A stretch of DNA of 64,000 nt from assembly GCA_964016885.1 (NCBI GenBank), contig OZ024760.1, positions 27,900,001 through 27,964,000 of the forward strand. The letters run 5' to 3'. Origin of the DNA: Eledone cirrhosa. Its lineage: Eukaryota. Under the pieces are notes generated by a model. It was given only the letters and a program-made list of their open reading frames with translations, was not told where the DNA came from and made no database searches. The translations under genes were made by a program, and so were the position numbers. This document shows, piece after piece, positions 18,776 to 31,287 of the stretch. Within the stretch, counting starts at the first letter, position 1. Each line of letters starts with the position of its first letter.

Positions 18776-20196
18776 TACTTGATCACATGAATGTCTATTT
18801 TTGTTAATATTTTGAATTAATATATATATATATATATGAAAACAGGGAGAAAAAGACGATTATTAGGAAGAAAAATATATTTTTTTTCCTTTTTATTTCT
18901 TTTTCTCTTTGTGTGAAGTGTGAAGTATTTTACTTTGTGTGAAGTGTTAAGGTTAATACCTTAACACTTGATTTATTTATTAATTAACAATGGCATTTAT
19001 TTATTTATATATTTAACAATAACAAAGCGGAGATCTATGAAAAATGGATTAACTCATCCCCATTAATCATCCCCCGCAAACTACAAATTAAATCCATCCC
19101 AAACGAACCCGAGACACAAAGACCCTCCCAGGGAAAGAATGGCACTTGATAACATAAAAACCGAAATTTAACTCCTTAAATTGAGAGCCCAAACAAATGA
19201 AGATAGGATCAAAGCAATCGACGATGAGATTAATCAAGCAAATATCAATAAAGACACCACCCTAGAAAATATTTCAAAATTATGGTTAGAGGACTGTAAT
19301 AAGGAAGAATTAAAATCCCTTCAACGCTGGGAAATAAACGTAACCTGGTTCTCTAAACACTTTTCCAAAAAGAACACACATCCAAGAACCCCTTCATAAT
19401 AACAAGAAAACTCAATCAACACCCAAACACCACACAACAACCAACAACAACAAAAAGCAATACCTCCCCACATACCAAAAAAGAAGGCATCACCTCGCCC
19501 CTACCTCCTACACCCACCACATAGCTACCACACGGATTCCCAAGCAACAAATATAGTAATAGAGAAACATCAGCTACAAGATAGACACTACAACTTCTCT
19601 CCCACCAGGAGAAACCATAGAACCTCCTACACTTACAACCCCCCTAACATCCCCACACAACAAACCCACAACCATCATTACTTTCAACATAGAACCCAAA
19701 ATACACAACTACGACACATGTCACATAGGGCCTCACAACCACACACCAACTATAAGGAAACCCTAATCTACCCTCCCCCACTAACCACATCCTACTACAA
19801 CAACACCAGCAGGGGACAATACAACCACACGAGACACCCTAACCACTACAACCACCATAACTACACACCATATAACAGCAACAGCAGGACTCAATATGAC
19901 CACACAAGACAACCCTACTACAACTACCACCAAGTCTACACACCCTACAACAACAGCAGTGCTCAACACAACCACACGATACAACCCAACTTCAACAACC
20001 AGCACAACTTCACACCCTATAACCACGTCCATCAAATCTACACACCCTACAACAACATCAGCACAGCTCAATACAACCACACGATACAACCTAACTTCAA
20101 CAACCACCACAGCTACACACCATCTAACAACAACAGCAGGGGCCAATACAACCATAAGAGACATCCAAACTTCAACAGCCACCACAACTTCCGTAA

Positions 20197-22484
20197 TCAT
20201 TTTTTAGACACAGCACACACACACAGGATAACAAGATAACACAAAACACACAGGAGACACAAAATGTAATAAAAATTGTTAATTTAACCTCTAAAGAATT
20301 AACAGACCAAATCAACATACCCTCCAAAGGTCTAAAATTTACACCAACTCCCCAACAACCAAACTACCCCGAAATGAAGGAAGATATTGCAGAATTCTGT
20401 AGAAAACTAAGACTCAGCGACAAATACAATGAGGATGACTCAATAGCCAGAAATAGAAGTAACTACACCCCACCAAAAGGCAAGAACAAATTCCTTGATC
20501 AATTCTGCGAACACATTACTAATTACCCATACCACCACCTACACAGACATAAACAAAAACCAAACCTAAGCAAAAAAGAATGGAATGATCTTAACAGTCT
20601 AAAAAACGACAAAACCCTAACAATCAAAGAGGCAGATAAAGGGAGTGCAGTAGTCCTTATGGGGACAGATTATTACACGACTCTAGTACTCTCAACTCTA
20701 GAAAACCAAACATATTATGAAAAGGCCCAACACTACACACAACAGAAAATAATGAGAAACCAAAAATCCCTAACAACCCTTTACAAAGAAGGCCTTACAG
20801 ACAAAGAATACAACTACATCACCAATTTCAAAAGCAGAACCAGCCTCTTCTACAGTATCCCCAAGACACACAAAAGCGAAGTAATAGGCAGCGCCTGCAA
20901 GCAAGCCACAGACATTTACATCAATATAGCCCCTCCTGATGACCTTAAATTAAGACCCATAATAGCAGGTACCACATGTGAAACCCACCGCCTAAGCAAC
21001 TTCCTAGATATTCTGCTTAACCTTTCCTAAAATAGGTAAAAAGCTTCATAAGGGACGACCTTGACATGCTCAACCACCTCCCAACAACACTCAATAATGA
21101 ACATACCCTACCTTTGATGTCATCAATTTATATTCCAATATCCCACACAACCTAGGTATAGAGGCAATACAATTCTGGATGGAAAATTTCCCTAGTGAAC
21201 TCCCACAGCGCATCCCTAAAGAATTTGTGTTGGAGGGACTCGAATTCATCTTGGAAAACAATTTCTTCGAATTCAATGCCAAATACTACAGTCAGATATC
21301 TGGGACTGCCATGGGCACGAAAGTGGCCCCCTCATACGCCAACCTTGTCCTGGGATATTTGGAAACCCCTCTCTACTGCAAAGTTCTAGACAAATACGGC
21401 AACCACTTCTACCAACACATAGAAAAGAACTGGAAGAGATATCTGGACGAGGGTTTCATCCTCTGGCATGAAAGTATAGATAGAGTGATTGAGTTTAAAA
21501 CCCTTCTGAATGGACTCAACACAAACTTACAATTCACAATGGATTACAGCCATGAACAACTCCCTTTCCTCGACATCCCCATCAAGAAAACAAACAACAA
21601 AATAGAAACAGACATTTACTACAAACCCACAGACTCCAAACAATACCTCTCATTCAACTCGTGCCACCCAAGACACACCAAAATGGCAATTCCTTATAAC
21701 CTAGCCAGAAGGATCTGCACAATAGTTTCAGATAAATACACATGCTACACACGACTAGAAGAATTAAAAAACACATTTATCAGCAGAAACTACCCATCAT
21801 CCCTAATCAACAATGGATTCCAACGTGCCCTAAAACTCGACATCCAGGAACTCAGACACCCCAAACCCAGGAATGAACCGCAACAGAAAACTCTACCATA
21901 CATCTCCACACACAACCCCTCAACAATGAAGCATTCGACACCATACTCCAGAACATCCCTTTACTAAAAAGAGACCCTCATAAAGAGCAAAAGACAACCT
22001 AAATCCATAAAAAACATCCTCACACAAGCCAAAATCCAACAAACCCCCACAATGAACCCTACAGTAACAAAATGCAGAAGGCCCAACTGTGGCATATGCA
22101 TAAATCTAATAGAAGGTTCAACATTCCATTTTAAACAAGGACAACGTTTCACAGTTAAACACAACTTTACATGTGCATCTGAAAACCTAATCTATGTTTT
22201 GACCTGCTCAGGTTGTCAAGAGCACTACATAGGACAGACAAAAAAACAGCCTCCGACAACGTATGGCCGTCCATAAATCACAAATCAAAATTCAAGAATA
22301 CAGAAAGATTGCGTTTAGTGAACATATAGCCAATTGTGCACCCAACCAACATCCAAACTTTAAAATTTTCCCCATTTACAAATTCATAGACAACGCTACT
22401 TTCATCCATCGTACCAATAAGGAAACGTATTTCATTAACAAATTCCAACCTCTACTTAATGCACTAAACTTCGGACTAAACTAA
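20197..22484 (+). pseudogene. Frameshifted PLE RT-GIY-YIG ORF
   Basis: Collinear fragments in ORFs 20374-21030, 21179-21967, 22052-22276, 22263-22484; conserved N-terminal IVNLTSKEL...SKGLKFTPTP lies upstream of the first ATG. Confidence 0.88.
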
Positions 22485-22892
22485 AACTGGAACGAACAAT
22501 CAAACATTTACAAATACCTATGTCTCTCTAAAGAGTTACCTCCCTTAAACCCTACCTAATCCCTTTTCTTAAATAAATTAAATATCATCCAGCATGTATT
22601 ACCTCCCCCTGCATATTAACTCTCTAAAAAGGGAAATCATATCAAACCCCAGTCCACTATTTGCCTCCATCATGGATCAACTATGCACTCTTGCTAACAC
22701 ATTTTGATCTGCTTATCTTCAAGAACTATGTCTGTAAATAACATTTTTTCTTTCACATTGCCTTATTATGCTCCACATTACGCTCCTTTTTTTTCTTTTC
22801 ACTTCATAAACCTTGTTTGTAAATAACATTATTCTTTCTGCACCATTTCTTTAACATGTCCAACACCACCATTCTACACCAATACATATTAT

Positions 22893-22935
22893 TATCATTT
22901 GATAATGCATGAAAATGCTGAAACCGGTAATAGAC
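22893..22935 (+). ncRNA. HHR variant with U3-A8 core (second copy on minus at 23385-23428)
   Basis: TTGATAA-TGCA(T)..(A)TGC-GAAAC CG GTA-ATAG; both copies share the double change; stem I is weak. Confidence 0.55.
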
Positions 22936-23124
22936 AATTATTAAATATATAAATAAATAAATAAATTCCATTTTTAATTAATAAATAAATCAACTAATAC
23001 GTTAACACTTTACACAAACTAAAATATTTCGTTTTAATCTTTTTCTAACTCAGAAAAAAGTGAGAAAGAAATAAAAAGGAAAAAAAAAAATTTTTCTTCC
23101 TAATAATCGTATTTTTCTCCCTGT

Positions 23125-23156
<32 letters not shown>

Positions 23157-23160
<4 letters not shown>

Positions 23161-23192
23161 ACAGGAAGAAAGAGACGATTATGAGGAAGAAA

Positions 23193-23235
<43 letters not shown>

Positions 23236-23665
23236 TCATTTTTTTTGTCTCTCTCTCTCTTTTTTCTGGGTTAGAAAATGATTAAAACGAAATGTTTAAC
23301 TTTGTGTGAAGTGTTAAGGTATTAGTTGATTTATTTATTATTTAACAATGGCATTTATTTATCTATTTATATATTTAATTATTGTCTATTACCGGTTTCT
23401 GCATTTATATGCATTATCAAATGATAGTGAAATGTATTAGTGTGGTGTCGCACATGTTAAACAGAAGGTGCAGAAAGAATAATGTTATATACAAACAAAG
23501 TTTAAGAAATGAAAAGAAAAAAGAAAAAGGAAAAGAAAACCGTGCATAATGTGGAACGTAAAAAGTCAATGTGGAAGAAAAGTTAATGTTATTTACAAGC
23601 ACAGTCATTGAAGTTAAGCAGTTCAAAATGCGTTAATATCGCAAGAGTGTTTAGTTGAACCATGG
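23157..23665 (-). mobile_element. Second, diverged 3'-end/pLTR fragment of the same Neptune-like family, tail-to-tail with the first across a (TA)n tract
   Basis: Reverse-complement similarity to 22670-23130, including the HHR-like motif. Confidence 0.85.
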
Positions 23666-24319: not shown

Positions 24320-25260
24320 AGAGTGTAGTGTTCATCAATACAACCCCTAGAGGTTAATTAGCTTACACATTTAGAAGGGCCCTAGATAAACTTAAACTTA
24401 ATATTAAGATAGTAGAAAGACCAGGTACCTCCATAAAAACACTTATTAGCAATACATACCCTTTTCAAAGCCCTCCCTGTATAGATAAGAAATGCATAAT
24501 CTGTAAACTAAGCCCTATATTAACTGTAAAACTAGAAATGTAGTATATAGCATAAGATGTACTGAAGGACAATGTAAAGATAAGAATATAGTGTACATAG
24601 GTGAGACAGTTCGTAGTATAGGAGAACGGTTAAATGAACACTGGCGAGAGCTTCTAGATAAAAAAGAATCATCAATACTCCATCAACATGCTAAAATAGA
24701 AGATAAGGGTAAATTAGAGGACATAGAAATAAAAATAGAATCTACACACAGAAAAGCCGCAATGTTTAGACAAATCACAGAGGCGATAAACATAAATGAA
24801 CTCCAACCAAAATTAAATAGAAAACATGAATGGAATAGCAACATCACAACTTACAATTAAGGACAAAATGAAAACACACACACACATAGAACAAACAACC
24901 AACTAGTAACATGTAAATAAACAAATAAATAAACAAATAAAAACACACACAGGCACCCGGATGTAACACATGCGCAAACTAAGCACACAACACACACAAA
25001 AACAAGATGGCGTAGGACAGAACAAAGGAGAGGCACAAAACAAAGAAAAGAATCCCCAGTCACTGAAGAGGTCACAGAATGTATGATGAAAGAACTTTGA
25101 CAATATATGAACAACCGTCCGGTTGTGGAACTAACCAAGCAACCGGAAATTTATAAATTCTTAAATTTATAAATTTAATTTATAATAAATTGGAGTAAAA
25201 GCAACTGGTGCGTGTGTTTCTTATTGGCAACATGACCCTCCCAAAGTATAACAATATCGG
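24320..25260 (+). mobile_element. 3' fragment of a relative of the 9262-11045 PLE family (GIY-YIG + 3' region + HHR)
   Basis: CKTRNVVYSIRCTEG...YIGETVRSIGERLNEH...RQITEA...LNRKHEW; shared tail ATGACCCTCCC(C)AA. Confidence 0.85.
25059..25101 (+). ncRNA. Minimal HHR variant (GAAAGAACUU); relatives at 9478-9518 (-), 46193-46231 (-), 46339-46376 (+)
   Basis: GTCA-CTGAAGA-G GTCA...TGAT-GAAAG AA CTT-TGAC; stem II is a different sequence (GTTGCA/TGCAAC) in the relatives but still pairs. Confidence 0.65.
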
Positions 25261-25462: not shown

Positions 25463-28359
25463 AGGGTGTTAAAGTTTGCTTGAAGCATTGTGAAATGTGT
25501 AAAAATACGTATTTAAGAAAGCCACAACAATGCAAAGGGAAATCTCGAGGTAGGAAGTGAAATATAGATAGGAAAAACAGGTGAAAGTGAAAGTTGAGAG
25601 AGACAAAGATGAAAACAAAACAAAGGTAGAGATTTGGCTAACCGCCATCCAAAACAACACCGAGATCGATTACAACCCCACAACCCACCCCACACTCCCC
25701 ACGTATCACCTCGACAACCCACTCCACCCCCACCCACCAACCACGAACTTGACACAAAACTACTCAGGTTGAAACATTCTATCTCTAACATCCTTTCCCA
25801 ACACACACACACACACAATAAACGCAACCCCACCAATGCACAATTTAATACTCTCACCAACCTAAGATCCAGGAACCTTGTGTACCTTCCCTCTGACAAG
25901 GGGAAAGAATTCTGTGTCATCTCGAGAGAGACCTACAATAACTTAGCTCTCCAACATCTTAATGACCACAGCCTCTACTCGAAAGTCACAGGGACCTCCT
26001 CGACTCTAATCGAGGAAGGCATTAACACCATATGGACTAACATCTGTGTCCAACGAAAACTGCCAAAGAAGGTAAAAAACAACATAATGACTCGAAACAG
26101 CAAATTACCCACCTTCTACCACCTGGTCAAAACACATAAACAAGGACCCGATTTGAAAATCAGGCCCATTGTCTCTAGCGTGGAGGGCCCACTCTATAAA
26201 ATATCGTGGCTGCTCTCCACACTACTGAAACCTATTCTACACACACTACCAGCCCACGTCTGCAGCTCAAAGGAGGTCTTGGAGCGACTACACCATTTGG
26301 CGCCCAACACCAGAAAGGACAACGGTTATGCCTTCAGTCTTGATGTGGTCGCCCTTTATACCTCCGTACCAGCATCCCCAGCTGTCGACCTGTTGACCGA
26401 ACGAGTCCGAGCATCTAACTTACACTGCTTCGGACTCACACACACGGACATCCACCAACTCCTCTCCTTCGTTGTGGATAATGCACTCTTCATTTTCCTC
26501 GGCCACACGTACAAACAAATCTCTGGGCTACCTATGGGCTCTAGTCTGTCCGGCATACTTGCGATCTCGTACATGGACCATCTGGAACGCAAGGCACTCA
26601 ATACCTGCCAACCCAACGCCGTCGCCTTCTACTCCAGATACGTTGATGATATCCTGATACTTACTTCTTCCCGGGAGATGGCGAATGAAATTCACCAAAT
26701 CTTCAACGATACTGACCAACACATCGATTTCACCATCGAACACCCAGGAGAAGACGGGTCACTCGCCCTCCTCGACTTCCGTATCAACATCTCGGAAGAA
26801 GGAGACATAAACACCACTTTCTACCGCAAAGCAGCGTGCAAGGACTTATTTGTGCATTATAACTCAGCCCTCCCCAACAACGCTAAGAGAGGCTATGTCC
26901 TAAATGAACTGACACGGATCACTAACAGATGCAGCGACCCGATGGGTGGTCTCACCCATACCACGCAATTCCGTAATCTACTCAGATCTAATGGTTATCC
27001 CAAGCGACTGATTAACGGAATTAGAGACCCCAGACCCAGTAGACTGACACCCACTAGAAAACTTAATTTTAGCAGGTGCTTCTTTAAAATCCCCCACCTG
27101 AGTGAATATACCACGAACGCCATCCGCAGGGCCATACGGACGGAGGGACTTGACATACATTTGGCCCACACAGGACCTTCGCTGCGAAGATGCCTCTCCA
27201 ACAAACCCTACGAGGCAGATGGCACGTGTTCCCTCAGCAACTGCCCGATACGGGGGGCAGATTGCCTACGCACCTATGTCGTATATAAGATTCAATGCGA
27301 TAAATGTAACAAGTTTTACATAGGTAGCACCATCCGACCCCTACATGTTCGTATCAAGGAACATATCAACACCAACGCATCTTCCTTCCGTAAACATATC
27401 CTTAAATGCGGAAACCCACAAGGTAGACCCTTGGTCACAGTCCTAGCGACTGAACGCAGCATCGGATCCTTAAGGATAAAGGAAGCACTTGTTATTAAGA
27501 ACCTCAGACCCCCACTTAACAACCGGGCTGAGAGAAATGAGCTGACATGGCTAACTTAACCATAATGACCATTCACAGCCTACGGCCTGCTATCTTCACA
27601 CACACGCACGTATATGCATACCCATACGCATGCACACACACTTCTATATTTTACACGCACACATGTTTTTACAACCTACCACCTTTCACACCCTTTGATT
27701 TCCAGCTTCTACAGCCCACTATCTTTCACACACAAACGCACTCACACATATACACACACAGTTACACACACACATGTATACCCATACGCTTACACACACA
27801 CACATCTATATTTATACACGCACACATATTTTACAACCTACCACCTTTCACACCCTTTCATTTCCAACTTCTACAGCCCACTATCTTTCACACACACACA
27901 CACTCACAGATATACACACTTACACTTATACACACACAGTCACACACACATATATATTTACATACACATATCTTACGGCTTTCACACGCTAACGCACCCT
28001 CTTGATTTAACCCATTTGGTCAGTAGCTTTTGCCACAGCTTATCACGCGCACGCGCATTCTTTCCTTCGTTTAAATTTTAAATATTTTTCTCCCCATAAC
28101 GGCATTCCTGTCTTAACGACATCACCACTTTCTCCGCTTGGCCTGTTTTTCCCCCCTTTTGGAACTTTTCCCCCGTTGATGGGCGTGAGCCCGAAATATT
28201 GGGATTAAATCTCTACTACGGTAACCCTTCTACCTTTGTTTTGTTTTCATCTTTGTCTCTCTCAACTTTCACTTTCACCTGTTTTTCCTATCTATATTTC
28301 ACTTCCTACCTCGAGATTTCCCTTTGCATTGTTGTGGCTTTCTTAAATACGTATTTTTA
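25461..28359 (+). mobile_element. Penelope-like retroelement (Penelope/Poseidon-like), 5'-truncated, with inverted pLTR copy at the 5' end, inserted in (TA)n
   Basis: RT+GIY-YIG ORF; 131-bp inverted repeat 25500-25630 / 28229-28359; the left arm extends ~40 bp further to the (TA)n tract; degenerate HHR at 28169-28204. Confidence 0.93.
25634..27559 (+). CDS. PLE reverse transcriptase + C-terminal GIY-YIG endonuclease (uninterrupted 641-codon frame, no true ATG at 5' end)
   Basis: Motifs LPSDKG, PTFYHLVKTHK, IRPIVSS, SLDVVALYTSV, QISGLPMGSSLS, YSRYVDD, FYRK, VVYKIQCDKC...YIGST..L..RIKEH, E.L.I....P.LN. Confidence 0.93.
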   Translation: MANRHPKQHRDRLQPHNPPHTPHVSPRQPTPPPPTNHELDTKLLRLKHSISNILSQHTHTHNKRNPTNAQFNTLTNLRSRNLVYLPSDKGKEFCVISRETYNNLALQHLNDHSLYSKVTGTSSTLIEEGINTIWTNICVQRKLPKKVKNNIMTRNSKLPTFYHLVKTHKQGPDLKIRPIVSSVEGPLYKISWLLSTLLKPILHTLPAHVCSSKEVLERLHHLAPNTRKDNGYAFSLDVVALYTSVPASPAVDLLTERVRASNLHCFGLTHTDIHQLLSFVVDNALFIFLGHTYKQISGLPMGSSLSGILAISYMDHLERKALNTCQPNAVAFYSRYVDDILILTSSREMANEIHQIFNDTDQHIDFTIEHPGEDGSLALLDFRINISEEGDINTTFYRKAACKDLFVHYNSALPNNAKRGYVLNELTRITNRCSDPMGGLTHTTQFRNLLRSNGYPKRLINGIRDPRPSRLTPTRKLNFSRCFFKIPHLSEYTTNAIRRAIRTEGLDIHLAHTGPSLRRCLSNKPYEADGTCSLSNCPIRGADCLRTYVVYKIQCDKCNKFYIGSTIRPLHVRIKEHINTNASSFRKHILKCGNPQGRPLVTVLATERSIGSLRIKEALVIKNLRPPLNNRAERNELTWLT

Positions 28360-30470: not shown

Positions 30471-31287
30471 ATAAGTATGTATACGTACATACATATATGT
30501 ATACAGACGTACAGTAGTATGTATATATATATACATACATGTACACATATATCTGTACGTATGGATTCACCACACATTTATTATAATGCTCGGTGTGTTT
30601 GTAAACAAACATCCCGTATTAAGCCGCAGTCTATAGCAACGACCGTTGCTCGTTTGTTCAACACTGACAAAGGAACGCTCCACTAGTTTCAAGCTTGTTA
30701 GCTATCGTCAGCAACATATACCTTCCTGCCAGATAGTTGAACGTCCGAAAGTATATACTTTCCTTATGCATATTAACGGCTGAGCAGCCTAATTTGCATA
30801 TCGAGTGGGTTAATCGGCCGGGTGCACCGAAAACGATAAACGGAAAAAATGAAACGAAATTTCATTTCCCACTCTTAGTACGGCTGTTACTTAACTATAA
30901 GTATGTATACGTACATACATATGTGTATACAGACGTACAGTAGTATGTATATATATATATACATACATGCACACATATATATATGTACGTATGGATTCAC
31001 CAAACATTTATTATAATGCTCGGTGTGTTTGTAAACAAACATCCCGTATTAAGCCGCAGTGTCTAACAAGCTTGAAACTAGTACAGCGTTCCTTTGTCAG
31101 TGTCGAACAAACGAGCAACGGTGGTTGCTAGACTTAATACGGGATGTTTGTTTACAAACACACTGAGCATTATAATAAATGTTTGGTGAATCCATACGTA
31201 CATATATATATGTGTGCATGTATGTATATATATATACATACTACTGTACGTATGTATATATATATGTATGTACGTGTACATACTTAT
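30471..31287 (-). mobile_element. Second array of the ~421-bp HHR unit (about 1.4 units on minus, then an inverted partial unit from ~31066)
   Basis: Period ~426 bp; HHR at 30671-30727 on minus (GUG at the cleavage triplet); 3' half HHR on plus at 31066-31092. Confidence 0.8.

Follow-up and report, generated by a model that had tools for sequence, protein, structure and literature searches.

The window analysed here, 64,000 nucleotides of the Eledone cirrhosa genome, contains a Penelope-like element (PLE) in which the reverse transcriptase (RT) frame opens within the end of an upstream ORF, in the -1 frame and at a T TTT TTA heptamer. As far as the available text of PMC8557442, PMC11167929 and PMC3846280 goes, canonical endonuclease-bearing (EN+) PLEs are described as single-ORF elements. 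The locus raises the question of whether its two frames are joined during expression, as in gag-pol, or reflect the decay of a single-ORF copy. A preliminary description of the junction proposed the former, and listed a splice acceptor and a chance indel as alternatives.

The element and its junction in the window

The element (Table 1) is a PLE of Neptune type, with an endonuclease; this copy is dead and lacks its 5' part, being cut off at about 19020. ORF2 is present as four frame segments, separated by three frame breaks and interrupted by in-frame stops, and in the upstream frame a break near 19125 accompanies four stops, at 19064, 19169, 19397 and 19400. A PLE-type RT followed by a GIY-YIG endonuclease at the C-terminus is recognised by tblastn to intact relatives; Pfam RVT_1 and GIY-YIG domains are both found on the intact relative P0003, and the window piece gives a weak GIY-YIG match. 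The linker between RT and endonuclease has the CX2-5CxxC form of Neptune, the motif is kept across the RT alignment and, by eye, the spacing from linker to GIY-YIG resembles that of the Neptune rows, and not the Nematis rows, of Fig. S2 of PMC8557442. The Neptune clade (Arkhipova 2006) is paraphyletic according to the available text of that paper (Craig et al. 2021), and the closest named RT proteins, from oyster, are 34-42% identical. A pseudo-LTR, tandem or inverted ends and 5' truncation, as in EN+ PLEs, are all found, with tandem ORF1 copies in two related loci (L001 and L004). The hammerhead-like core in the window pseudo-LTR, near 22898-22925, is degenerate and has no Rfam hammerhead match, the Rfam search returning only (TA)n artefacts; a CTGANGA...GAAA pattern is present 3' of ORF2 in 6 of 10 relatives checked.

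Table 1. Parts of the Penelope-like element copy, in window coordinates
Feature	Position	Strand	Basis or remark
Whole element	~18820-23664		Bounded by (TA)n runs; self-BLAST and sequence
Inverted copy of 3' tail, at the 5' truncation point	18820..19020	-	Adjoins (TA)n; self-BLAST, 79% to 22937-23146
Helical ORF1 domain remnant, 5'-truncated	19030..19396	+	tblastn with ORF1 relatives; profile matches E 1e-14 to 1e-15; alignment
ORF1 tail, low-complexity, N/H/Y/Q-rich	19403..20239	+	Last 173 codons are the upstream ORF of the preliminary description
Degenerate 72-75 bp repeats inside the ORF1 tail	19795-20186	+	
Slippery heptamer T TTT TTA	20200..20206	+	T6 invariant in 11/11 aligned junctions
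ORF1 stop TAA	20237..20239	+	12 codons past the slippery Phe codon; 33 nt past the Leu codon
ORF2, RT and C-terminal GIY-YIG endonuclease	20197..22484	+	tblastn with P0002, 49-76% identity
Cys-x4-Cys-xx-Cys linker preceding the endonuclease (CRRPNCGIC), Neptune/Nematis type	22073..22099	+	Motif as in PMC8557442
3' pseudo-LTR, terminating in (TA)n	22671..23146	+	Self-BLAST
Inverted pseudo-LTR copy	23139..23664	-	Palindromic self-match 77%, 22671-23664

All of the coordinates originally given for the junction proved accurate: an ATG at 19718, TAA at 20194-20196, the heptamer at 20200-20206, the upstream stop at 20237-20239 and the next ATG at 20374. The heptamer is in phase with the upstream frame (CAT TTT TTA GAC), and is read as His-Phe-Leu in ORF1 and as Phe-Phe-Arg in the frame of ORF2. 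The -1 frame opens past the TAA at 20194-20196 and remains open for 277 codons, reaching the conserved IVNLTSKEL...SKGLKFTPTP region at the N-terminus of the PLE RT, with the ATG at 20374 as its first. The ATG at 19718 is present, but is not the start of the gene, as the frame reaches back into a helical ORF1 domain, the remnant of which matches relatives by tblastn with E values of 1e-10 to 1e-26. As originally noted, no obvious stimulatory hairpin is present, the minimum free energy being 0.0 in ten 60-nt windows 3' of the heptamer. Taken alone the window heptamer is weak evidence, as the element contains 23 heptamers of the X XXY YYZ form and three further breaks in ORF2; it is conservation among relatives that raises it above chance.

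Other PLE sequences are present in the window. A second, open PLE frame of 648 aa (25613-27559) encodes an RT and, at its C-terminal end, a GIY-YIG domain, sits on a long tree branch and, with SDKGKEF and YHLVKTHK motifs, is Nematis-like by eye. There is also a PLE fragment with a piece of GIY-YIG (24507-24860), and an RT thumb piece on the minus strand (10330-11175) that recalls Naiad elements. A CTGATGA...GAAG hammerhead-like core just to the left of the element (18717-18742) is probably the end of another PLE, and LINE fragments are RTE-like (31138-32677) and CR1/Jockey-like (11700-12164).

Conservation of the junction and alternative explanations

Scans of metagenome and genome contigs returned 82 loci, of which 61, together with the window, match at the RT N-terminus. 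In a FastTree phylogeny in which all loci are unnamed, the window RT belongs to a branch of 27 rows that has 100% SH-like support and is separate from the single-ORF elements. Eleven loci of the group pass the junction. Five of these are in the 27-row branch; the other six, too broken for the tree, were assigned by RT identity and, except for L059, by ORF1 homology. Five loci (L005, L006, L012, L023 and L082) end short of the junction site. Counts by locus include close kin (L008/L009 and L001/L007) and five loci from one metagenome sample. Two loci, L081 and L082, are found in records of bacteria, one a Bacteroidota MAG and one a genome of SUP05, and host contamination is the likely reason.

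T TTT TTR is present in phase, and is overlapped by an ORF2 in the -1 frame, in 10 of the 11 clade loci that reach the junction (L001-L004, L007-L011 and L081). The eleventh, L059, is a decayed member of the clade that has neither heptamer nor ORF1 and looks truncated. The same T TTT TTA site is found in L041, which lies outside the clade and whose ORF1 is a different one, and the window, the ten clade loci and L041 provide 12 sites for comparison. At all 12 (11 aligned, and L009 separately) the run of T residues is exactly six, and at all 12 the -1 frame is closed by a stop 0-15 codons 5' of the heptamer and is free of stops from the heptamer to the ORF1 stop. At the upstream stop rate of 0.079, the chance of such a stop-free overlap is ~5e-6 for 10 families. 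Only nine further TTTTTTR runs occur in the 32,278 bases surrounding the 12 sites, and none of the sites has an ATG in the 45 ORF2 codons from the heptamer. The overlap and the heptamer are therefore conserved in relatives, and the element has a conserved in-phase X XXY YYZ heptamer within an ORF overlap, as at a frameshift site.

Sister-copy reads and contigs from four runs were mapped to 20130-20520, one run (X1, 173 contigs) being possibly from the window's own sample. Depth in X1 increases at 20200, from 1967 to 5282, and decreases again past 20242; loose ends are found 5' of 20198 and 3' of 20248. Between subfamilies, the region from the heptamer to just 3' of the stop forms an island of conservation. 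One 709-nt contig covers 20196-20356 with a net in-frame difference of 3 bases. No heptamer substitution is present among 40 of the 74 variant rows, and the indels listed are of 3 or 12 bases, together with a 7-base deletion in one low-depth X4 contig that does not fuse the frames.

Fused proteins were sought from both sides. The 162 ORF1 proteins listed come from one search limited to 301-2000 aa and another from which the best 150 were taken, and an infrequent fusion might have escaped both. They reach 546 aa at most, and no RT match is present in any of them; the ORF1-domain profile search gave 1098 clusters at 50% identity, a part of which was checked. Conversely, the upstream ORF1 domain is present in none of the 44 longer RT relatives (557-923 aa). 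These counts favour gag-pol-like expression over one continuous ORF. The suggestion that the junction arose by chance, through a one-base indel in a single-ORF copy undergoing decay, agrees with the four other frame breaks and several stops in the window copy, but the same junction is repeated in 10 other loci and in the sister copies, and no fused relative is present among the 162 listed ORF1 and 44 RT proteins, making such an accident hardly credible.

A U UUU UUR site excludes Q, E, K, M and W from the position preceding Phe, and the site can be sought in proteins. Among the 120 listed ORF1 proteins with a tail of at least 60 aa, 73 have Phe-Leu within the last 30 aa (~4% expected), and in 72 of these 73 the residue before Phe has a codon able to end in U (p 6e-7). 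The 42 short-tailed proteins, 8 of which have Phe-Leu, were left out of this count. Of the 47 proteins with no Phe-Leu in the last 30 aa, 13 have the pair at 31-42 and 6 have F at -11; truncation or breakage probably accounts for some of the 47. In one subclade (P0114, P0141, P0172, P0178, P0180 and P0094) x-Phe at -12/-11 replaces Phe-Leu, which would fit the use of another heptamer (NNU UUY) at an equal distance from the stop.

A G often follows the heptamer. Under the splice-acceptor alternative listed in the preliminary description, TTTTTTAG would provide the AG at the end of the T-run, and an intron with an upstream donor would remove part or all of ORF1, joining an upstream exon to ORF2. 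Eight of the 12 DNA sites read TTTTTTAG, G follows Phe-Leu in 41 of 73 proteins against a background of 19%, and PLEs are known to retain introns (PMC8557442, in the text available). The AG is, however, not conserved. Four of the 12 sites do not have it, the first AG being 29 (L003), 25 (L010), 81 (L011) and 18 (L081) bases off, and in 32 of 73 proteins the residue after Phe-Leu rules out TTAG. The run consists of exactly six T residues preceded by a purine and is not part of a more extended pyrimidine tract, and an acceptor needs neither the fixed Phe-Leu phase nor a stop 12 codons on (see below). We consider splicing at this position most unlikely. The G after T TTT TTA also generates a TAG in the third frame, at 20205-20207 in the window and at seven related sites, that would immediately end -2 slips.

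ORF2 could also be made separately. Termination-reinitiation is known from LINE-1 and SART1, and a similar event, or a near-cognate start near the ORF1 stop, would leave the U-tract as a spacing element. The distance from U-tract to stop is fixed, CTG or GTG followed by G is present inside the overlap at 5 of 12 sites, and 16 of the 44 gene-called RT proteins have a Met start before the N-terminal motif, with a G-initial codon next in 15 (the Met-G starts), although at the protein level a true ATG start looks the same as an NTG codon imposed by Trp codons in ORF1. Against a separate start, ATG is absent at 12/12 sites, and the window, L008, L009 and L041 have no start codon of any kind in the 45 codons. 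ORF1 ends in TAA or TAG at each of the 12 sites, hence there is no ATGA overlap, and the -1 frame opens at the heptamer rather than at the stop. Separate initiation is thus a very improbable source of the RT. A decayed ATGA stop-start overlap at 20236-20239 was also considered in the window and was dropped, given these stops and the lack of a nearby ATG.

An invariant T6 would similarly suit slippage by RNA polymerase, in which the addition of one U fuses the frames in the RNA; the protein would be identical and no RNA fold would be required. Any codon phase would then do, yet the phase is always x-Phe-Leu after a U-ending codon, and the stop spacing is left unexplained. Outside lineages have A AAA AAC with a covarying pseudoknot, which is a ribosomal signal. 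Transcriptional slippage is accordingly highly improbable. The conserved overlap, the -1 phase, the heptamer and the missing ORF2 ATG all support gag-pol-like expression as originally proposed, and from this comparative evidence we infer that the RT-endonuclease is very probably made as an ORF1-ORF2 fusion by programmed -1 ribosomal frameshifting at U UUU UUA/G.

Stop spacing, the ORF1 protein and a proposed mechanism

A stimulatory hairpin or pseudoknot was sought 5-9 nt downstream of the heptamer. There is no shared fold; candidates are present at ~2 of the 12 sites, with none in the window. Hairpins have z < -1.9 at two sites (L002 and L004), and the pseudoknot scan beats all shuffles at one (L002). 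Applied to the A AAA AAC group the scan places 7 of 9 at or below 2%, and recovery of this group establishes that the scan works.

The A AAA AAC group consists of EN-less PLEs from freshwater metagenomes (L029, L038, L051, L054, L061, L064, L065, L069, L071, L072, L074 and L079), in which an ORF1 of 590-810 aa is overlapped by ORF2 for ~200 codons. The heptamer is invariant and is followed, after a 6-nt spacer, by an H-type pseudoknot in which 98.8% of cells are paired and 9 of 15 pairs have two-sided changes. This is probably the known pseudoknot-type PLE frameshift.

The distance from the heptamer to the ORF1 stop is, in contrast to any fold, shared. Of 109 cluster representatives, 75 have a compatible Phe-Leu at most 50 residues from the end; the stop is exactly 12 codons past the slippery Phe in 27 of these 75 and closer than 12 in none. 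The 12-codon spacing is found in several separate ORF1 clades, as taken from a quick tree, and in 10 of 22 clusters at 45% identity, and the peptide between Phe-Leu and the stop is not conserved. Secondary heaps at 22-25 codons (n=16) and 31-34 codons (n=9) fit two and three ribosome lengths, a pattern noticed post hoc that weakens as kin are pooled; heap significance is p 0.001-0.002, 0.01-0.02 and 0.16-0.23 with clustering at 45, 40 and 36%, respectively. The 12-codon spacing is also present in two outside lineages with unrelated ORF1. L041 (1417-5176) has T TTT TTA and an ORF1 end that looks SGNH/GDSL esterase-like by eye (with no Pfam match), and L055 (67-3344) is an EN-less PLE with A AAA AAC and no fold 3' of it.

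Twelve codons from Phe put the stop 33 nt past the Leu codon, A-site to A-site. In yeast, disomes accumulate at stop codons, with footprints of 58 and 61 nt that correspond to spacings of 30 and 33 nt, as given in the available text of PMC7784341. In human cells lacking ABCE1, a second ribosome is positioned ~30 nt 5' of the stop and frameshifted readthrough is increased, with the leading ribosome being the one thought to be pushed (PMC7544199, text available in part). As 33 nt is the disome distance, a ribosome behind a terminating one would hold UUU in its P site and UUR in its A site. We hypothesise that the stimulator may be the ribosome terminating at the ORF1 stop, rather than an RNA fold, a reading that the spacing renders plausible and to which we would give somewhat less than even chances. 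Tentatively, the clade as a whole might use a structure-free, collision-driven -1 frameshift, with the roadblock one ribosome length on and, in derived families, two or three. Other readings of the 12-codon floor are that a loosely conserved RNA element ending at the stop, as in L004, has maintained an ancestral spacing, or that the floor could reflect an effect on refolding of the kind proposed for SARS-CoV-2 (PMC8168617).

The sequence of events would then be as follows. A majority of ribosomes would terminate 12 codons past the heptamer and release free ORF1, a long-helix protein that may be an abundant structural or RNA-binding partner. The ribosome terminating at the ORF1 stop would hold the next one with UUU in its P site and UUR in its A site, and a minority would slip, with tRNA-Phe and tRNA-Leu re-pairing on UUU UUU. 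The slipped ribosomes would produce the enzyme as an extension of ORF1, at a ratio like that of gag-pol, and some families may have added a hairpin.

An AlphaFold2 model of ORF1, from a 120-sequence alignment, is all-helical, with helices at 28-149, 169-215 and 218-260 predicted with high confidence, a disordered tail and a mean pLDDT of 77. ORF1 has no Pfam match, no Foldseek match to PDB or viral structure libraries at E 0.001 and no usable match in the ESM Atlas; no relative was found in the viral contigs searched, and the window ORF1 fragment as sole query gave no match. No gag capsid fold or zinc knuckle was detected in the Pfam, PDB and viral library searches and, judged from the predicted fold, ORF1 is not a gag; we infer that it serves in structure or in the packaging of RNA. 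The N-terminus of single-ORF Penelope proteins is a long helix for which dimerisation is predicted (PMC11167929, text available in part). Alignment of ORF1 with this N-terminal domain by hhalign is not significant (probability 2.2%, E 0.022), with an IP[RKS] motif and the helices that follow lining up, and with the EN-minus group the probability is 0.2%.

Relation to known frameshifting elements

To our knowledge, programmed frameshifting is rare in non-LTR retroelements. The description of EN-bearing PLEs as single-ORF holds for the published accounts cited above but not for this clade, a large group of EN+ PLEs with a gag-pol-like layout. The family to which ORF1 belongs is unnamed in Pfam, PDB and the ESM Atlas, and such elements are consequently annotated without their first gene. 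If the queue model is correct, the ratio of enzyme to ORF1 would track ribosome load and termination speed, and the site would be a natural collision-driven recoding signal. The fixed 12-codon stop makes the long-discussed question of frameshifting by collision at a stop testable, with a 60-base cassette and dozens of natural variants.

In the literature searched, no published account of a slippery site in Neptune or other EN+ PLEs was found; an earlier description may exist in Repbase reports or in the primary Neptune and Terminon papers. The available text of PMC3846280, PMC4700185, PMC5718144, PMC6431247, PMC8969392 and PMC7544508 has no account of a PLE slippery site. Two non-overlapping ORFs are described for a killifish Neptune (PMC12602865), and esterase-bearing Neptune-like PLEs have been reported (PMC5408684), with no frameshift mentioned in the available text of either paper. 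The available Fig. 1 legend of PMC8557442 describes some PLE ORF1 as 'separated by a frameshift with a pseudoknot'. Such PLEs have, in common with this clade, a coiled-coil ORF1 upstream of the RT and joined to it by a frameshift, a probable one in the clade; the clade differs by its endonuclease, its U6R heptamer and the constancy of its stop distance, and has no shared pseudoknot. The legend reportedly refers to EN-minus Athena/Terminon and Coprina, and the figure may already mark a Neptune frameshift.

Like Neptune EN+ PLEs the clade has a Neptune-type linker and endonuclease; unlike canonical EN+ PLEs it encodes a helical ORF1 separately, in a different frame, and, in contrast to single-ORF coral elements with the same linker, it forms a 27-row branch of its own. 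In SARS-CoV-2 1a/1b, the 0-frame stop is five codons away and, as proposed by Bhatt et al. 2021 (PMC8168617, text available in part), allows refolding of the pseudoknot, whereas in this clade there is no shared fold and the stop is 12 codons on, at the disome distance. HIV-1 gag-pol has a stem-loop, and ORF1 of the clade has no gag or zinc-knuckle match, but the clade has in common with HIV-1 the U UUU UUA site (PMC4373837), a structural ORF before the RT and a preference for G immediately after the site.
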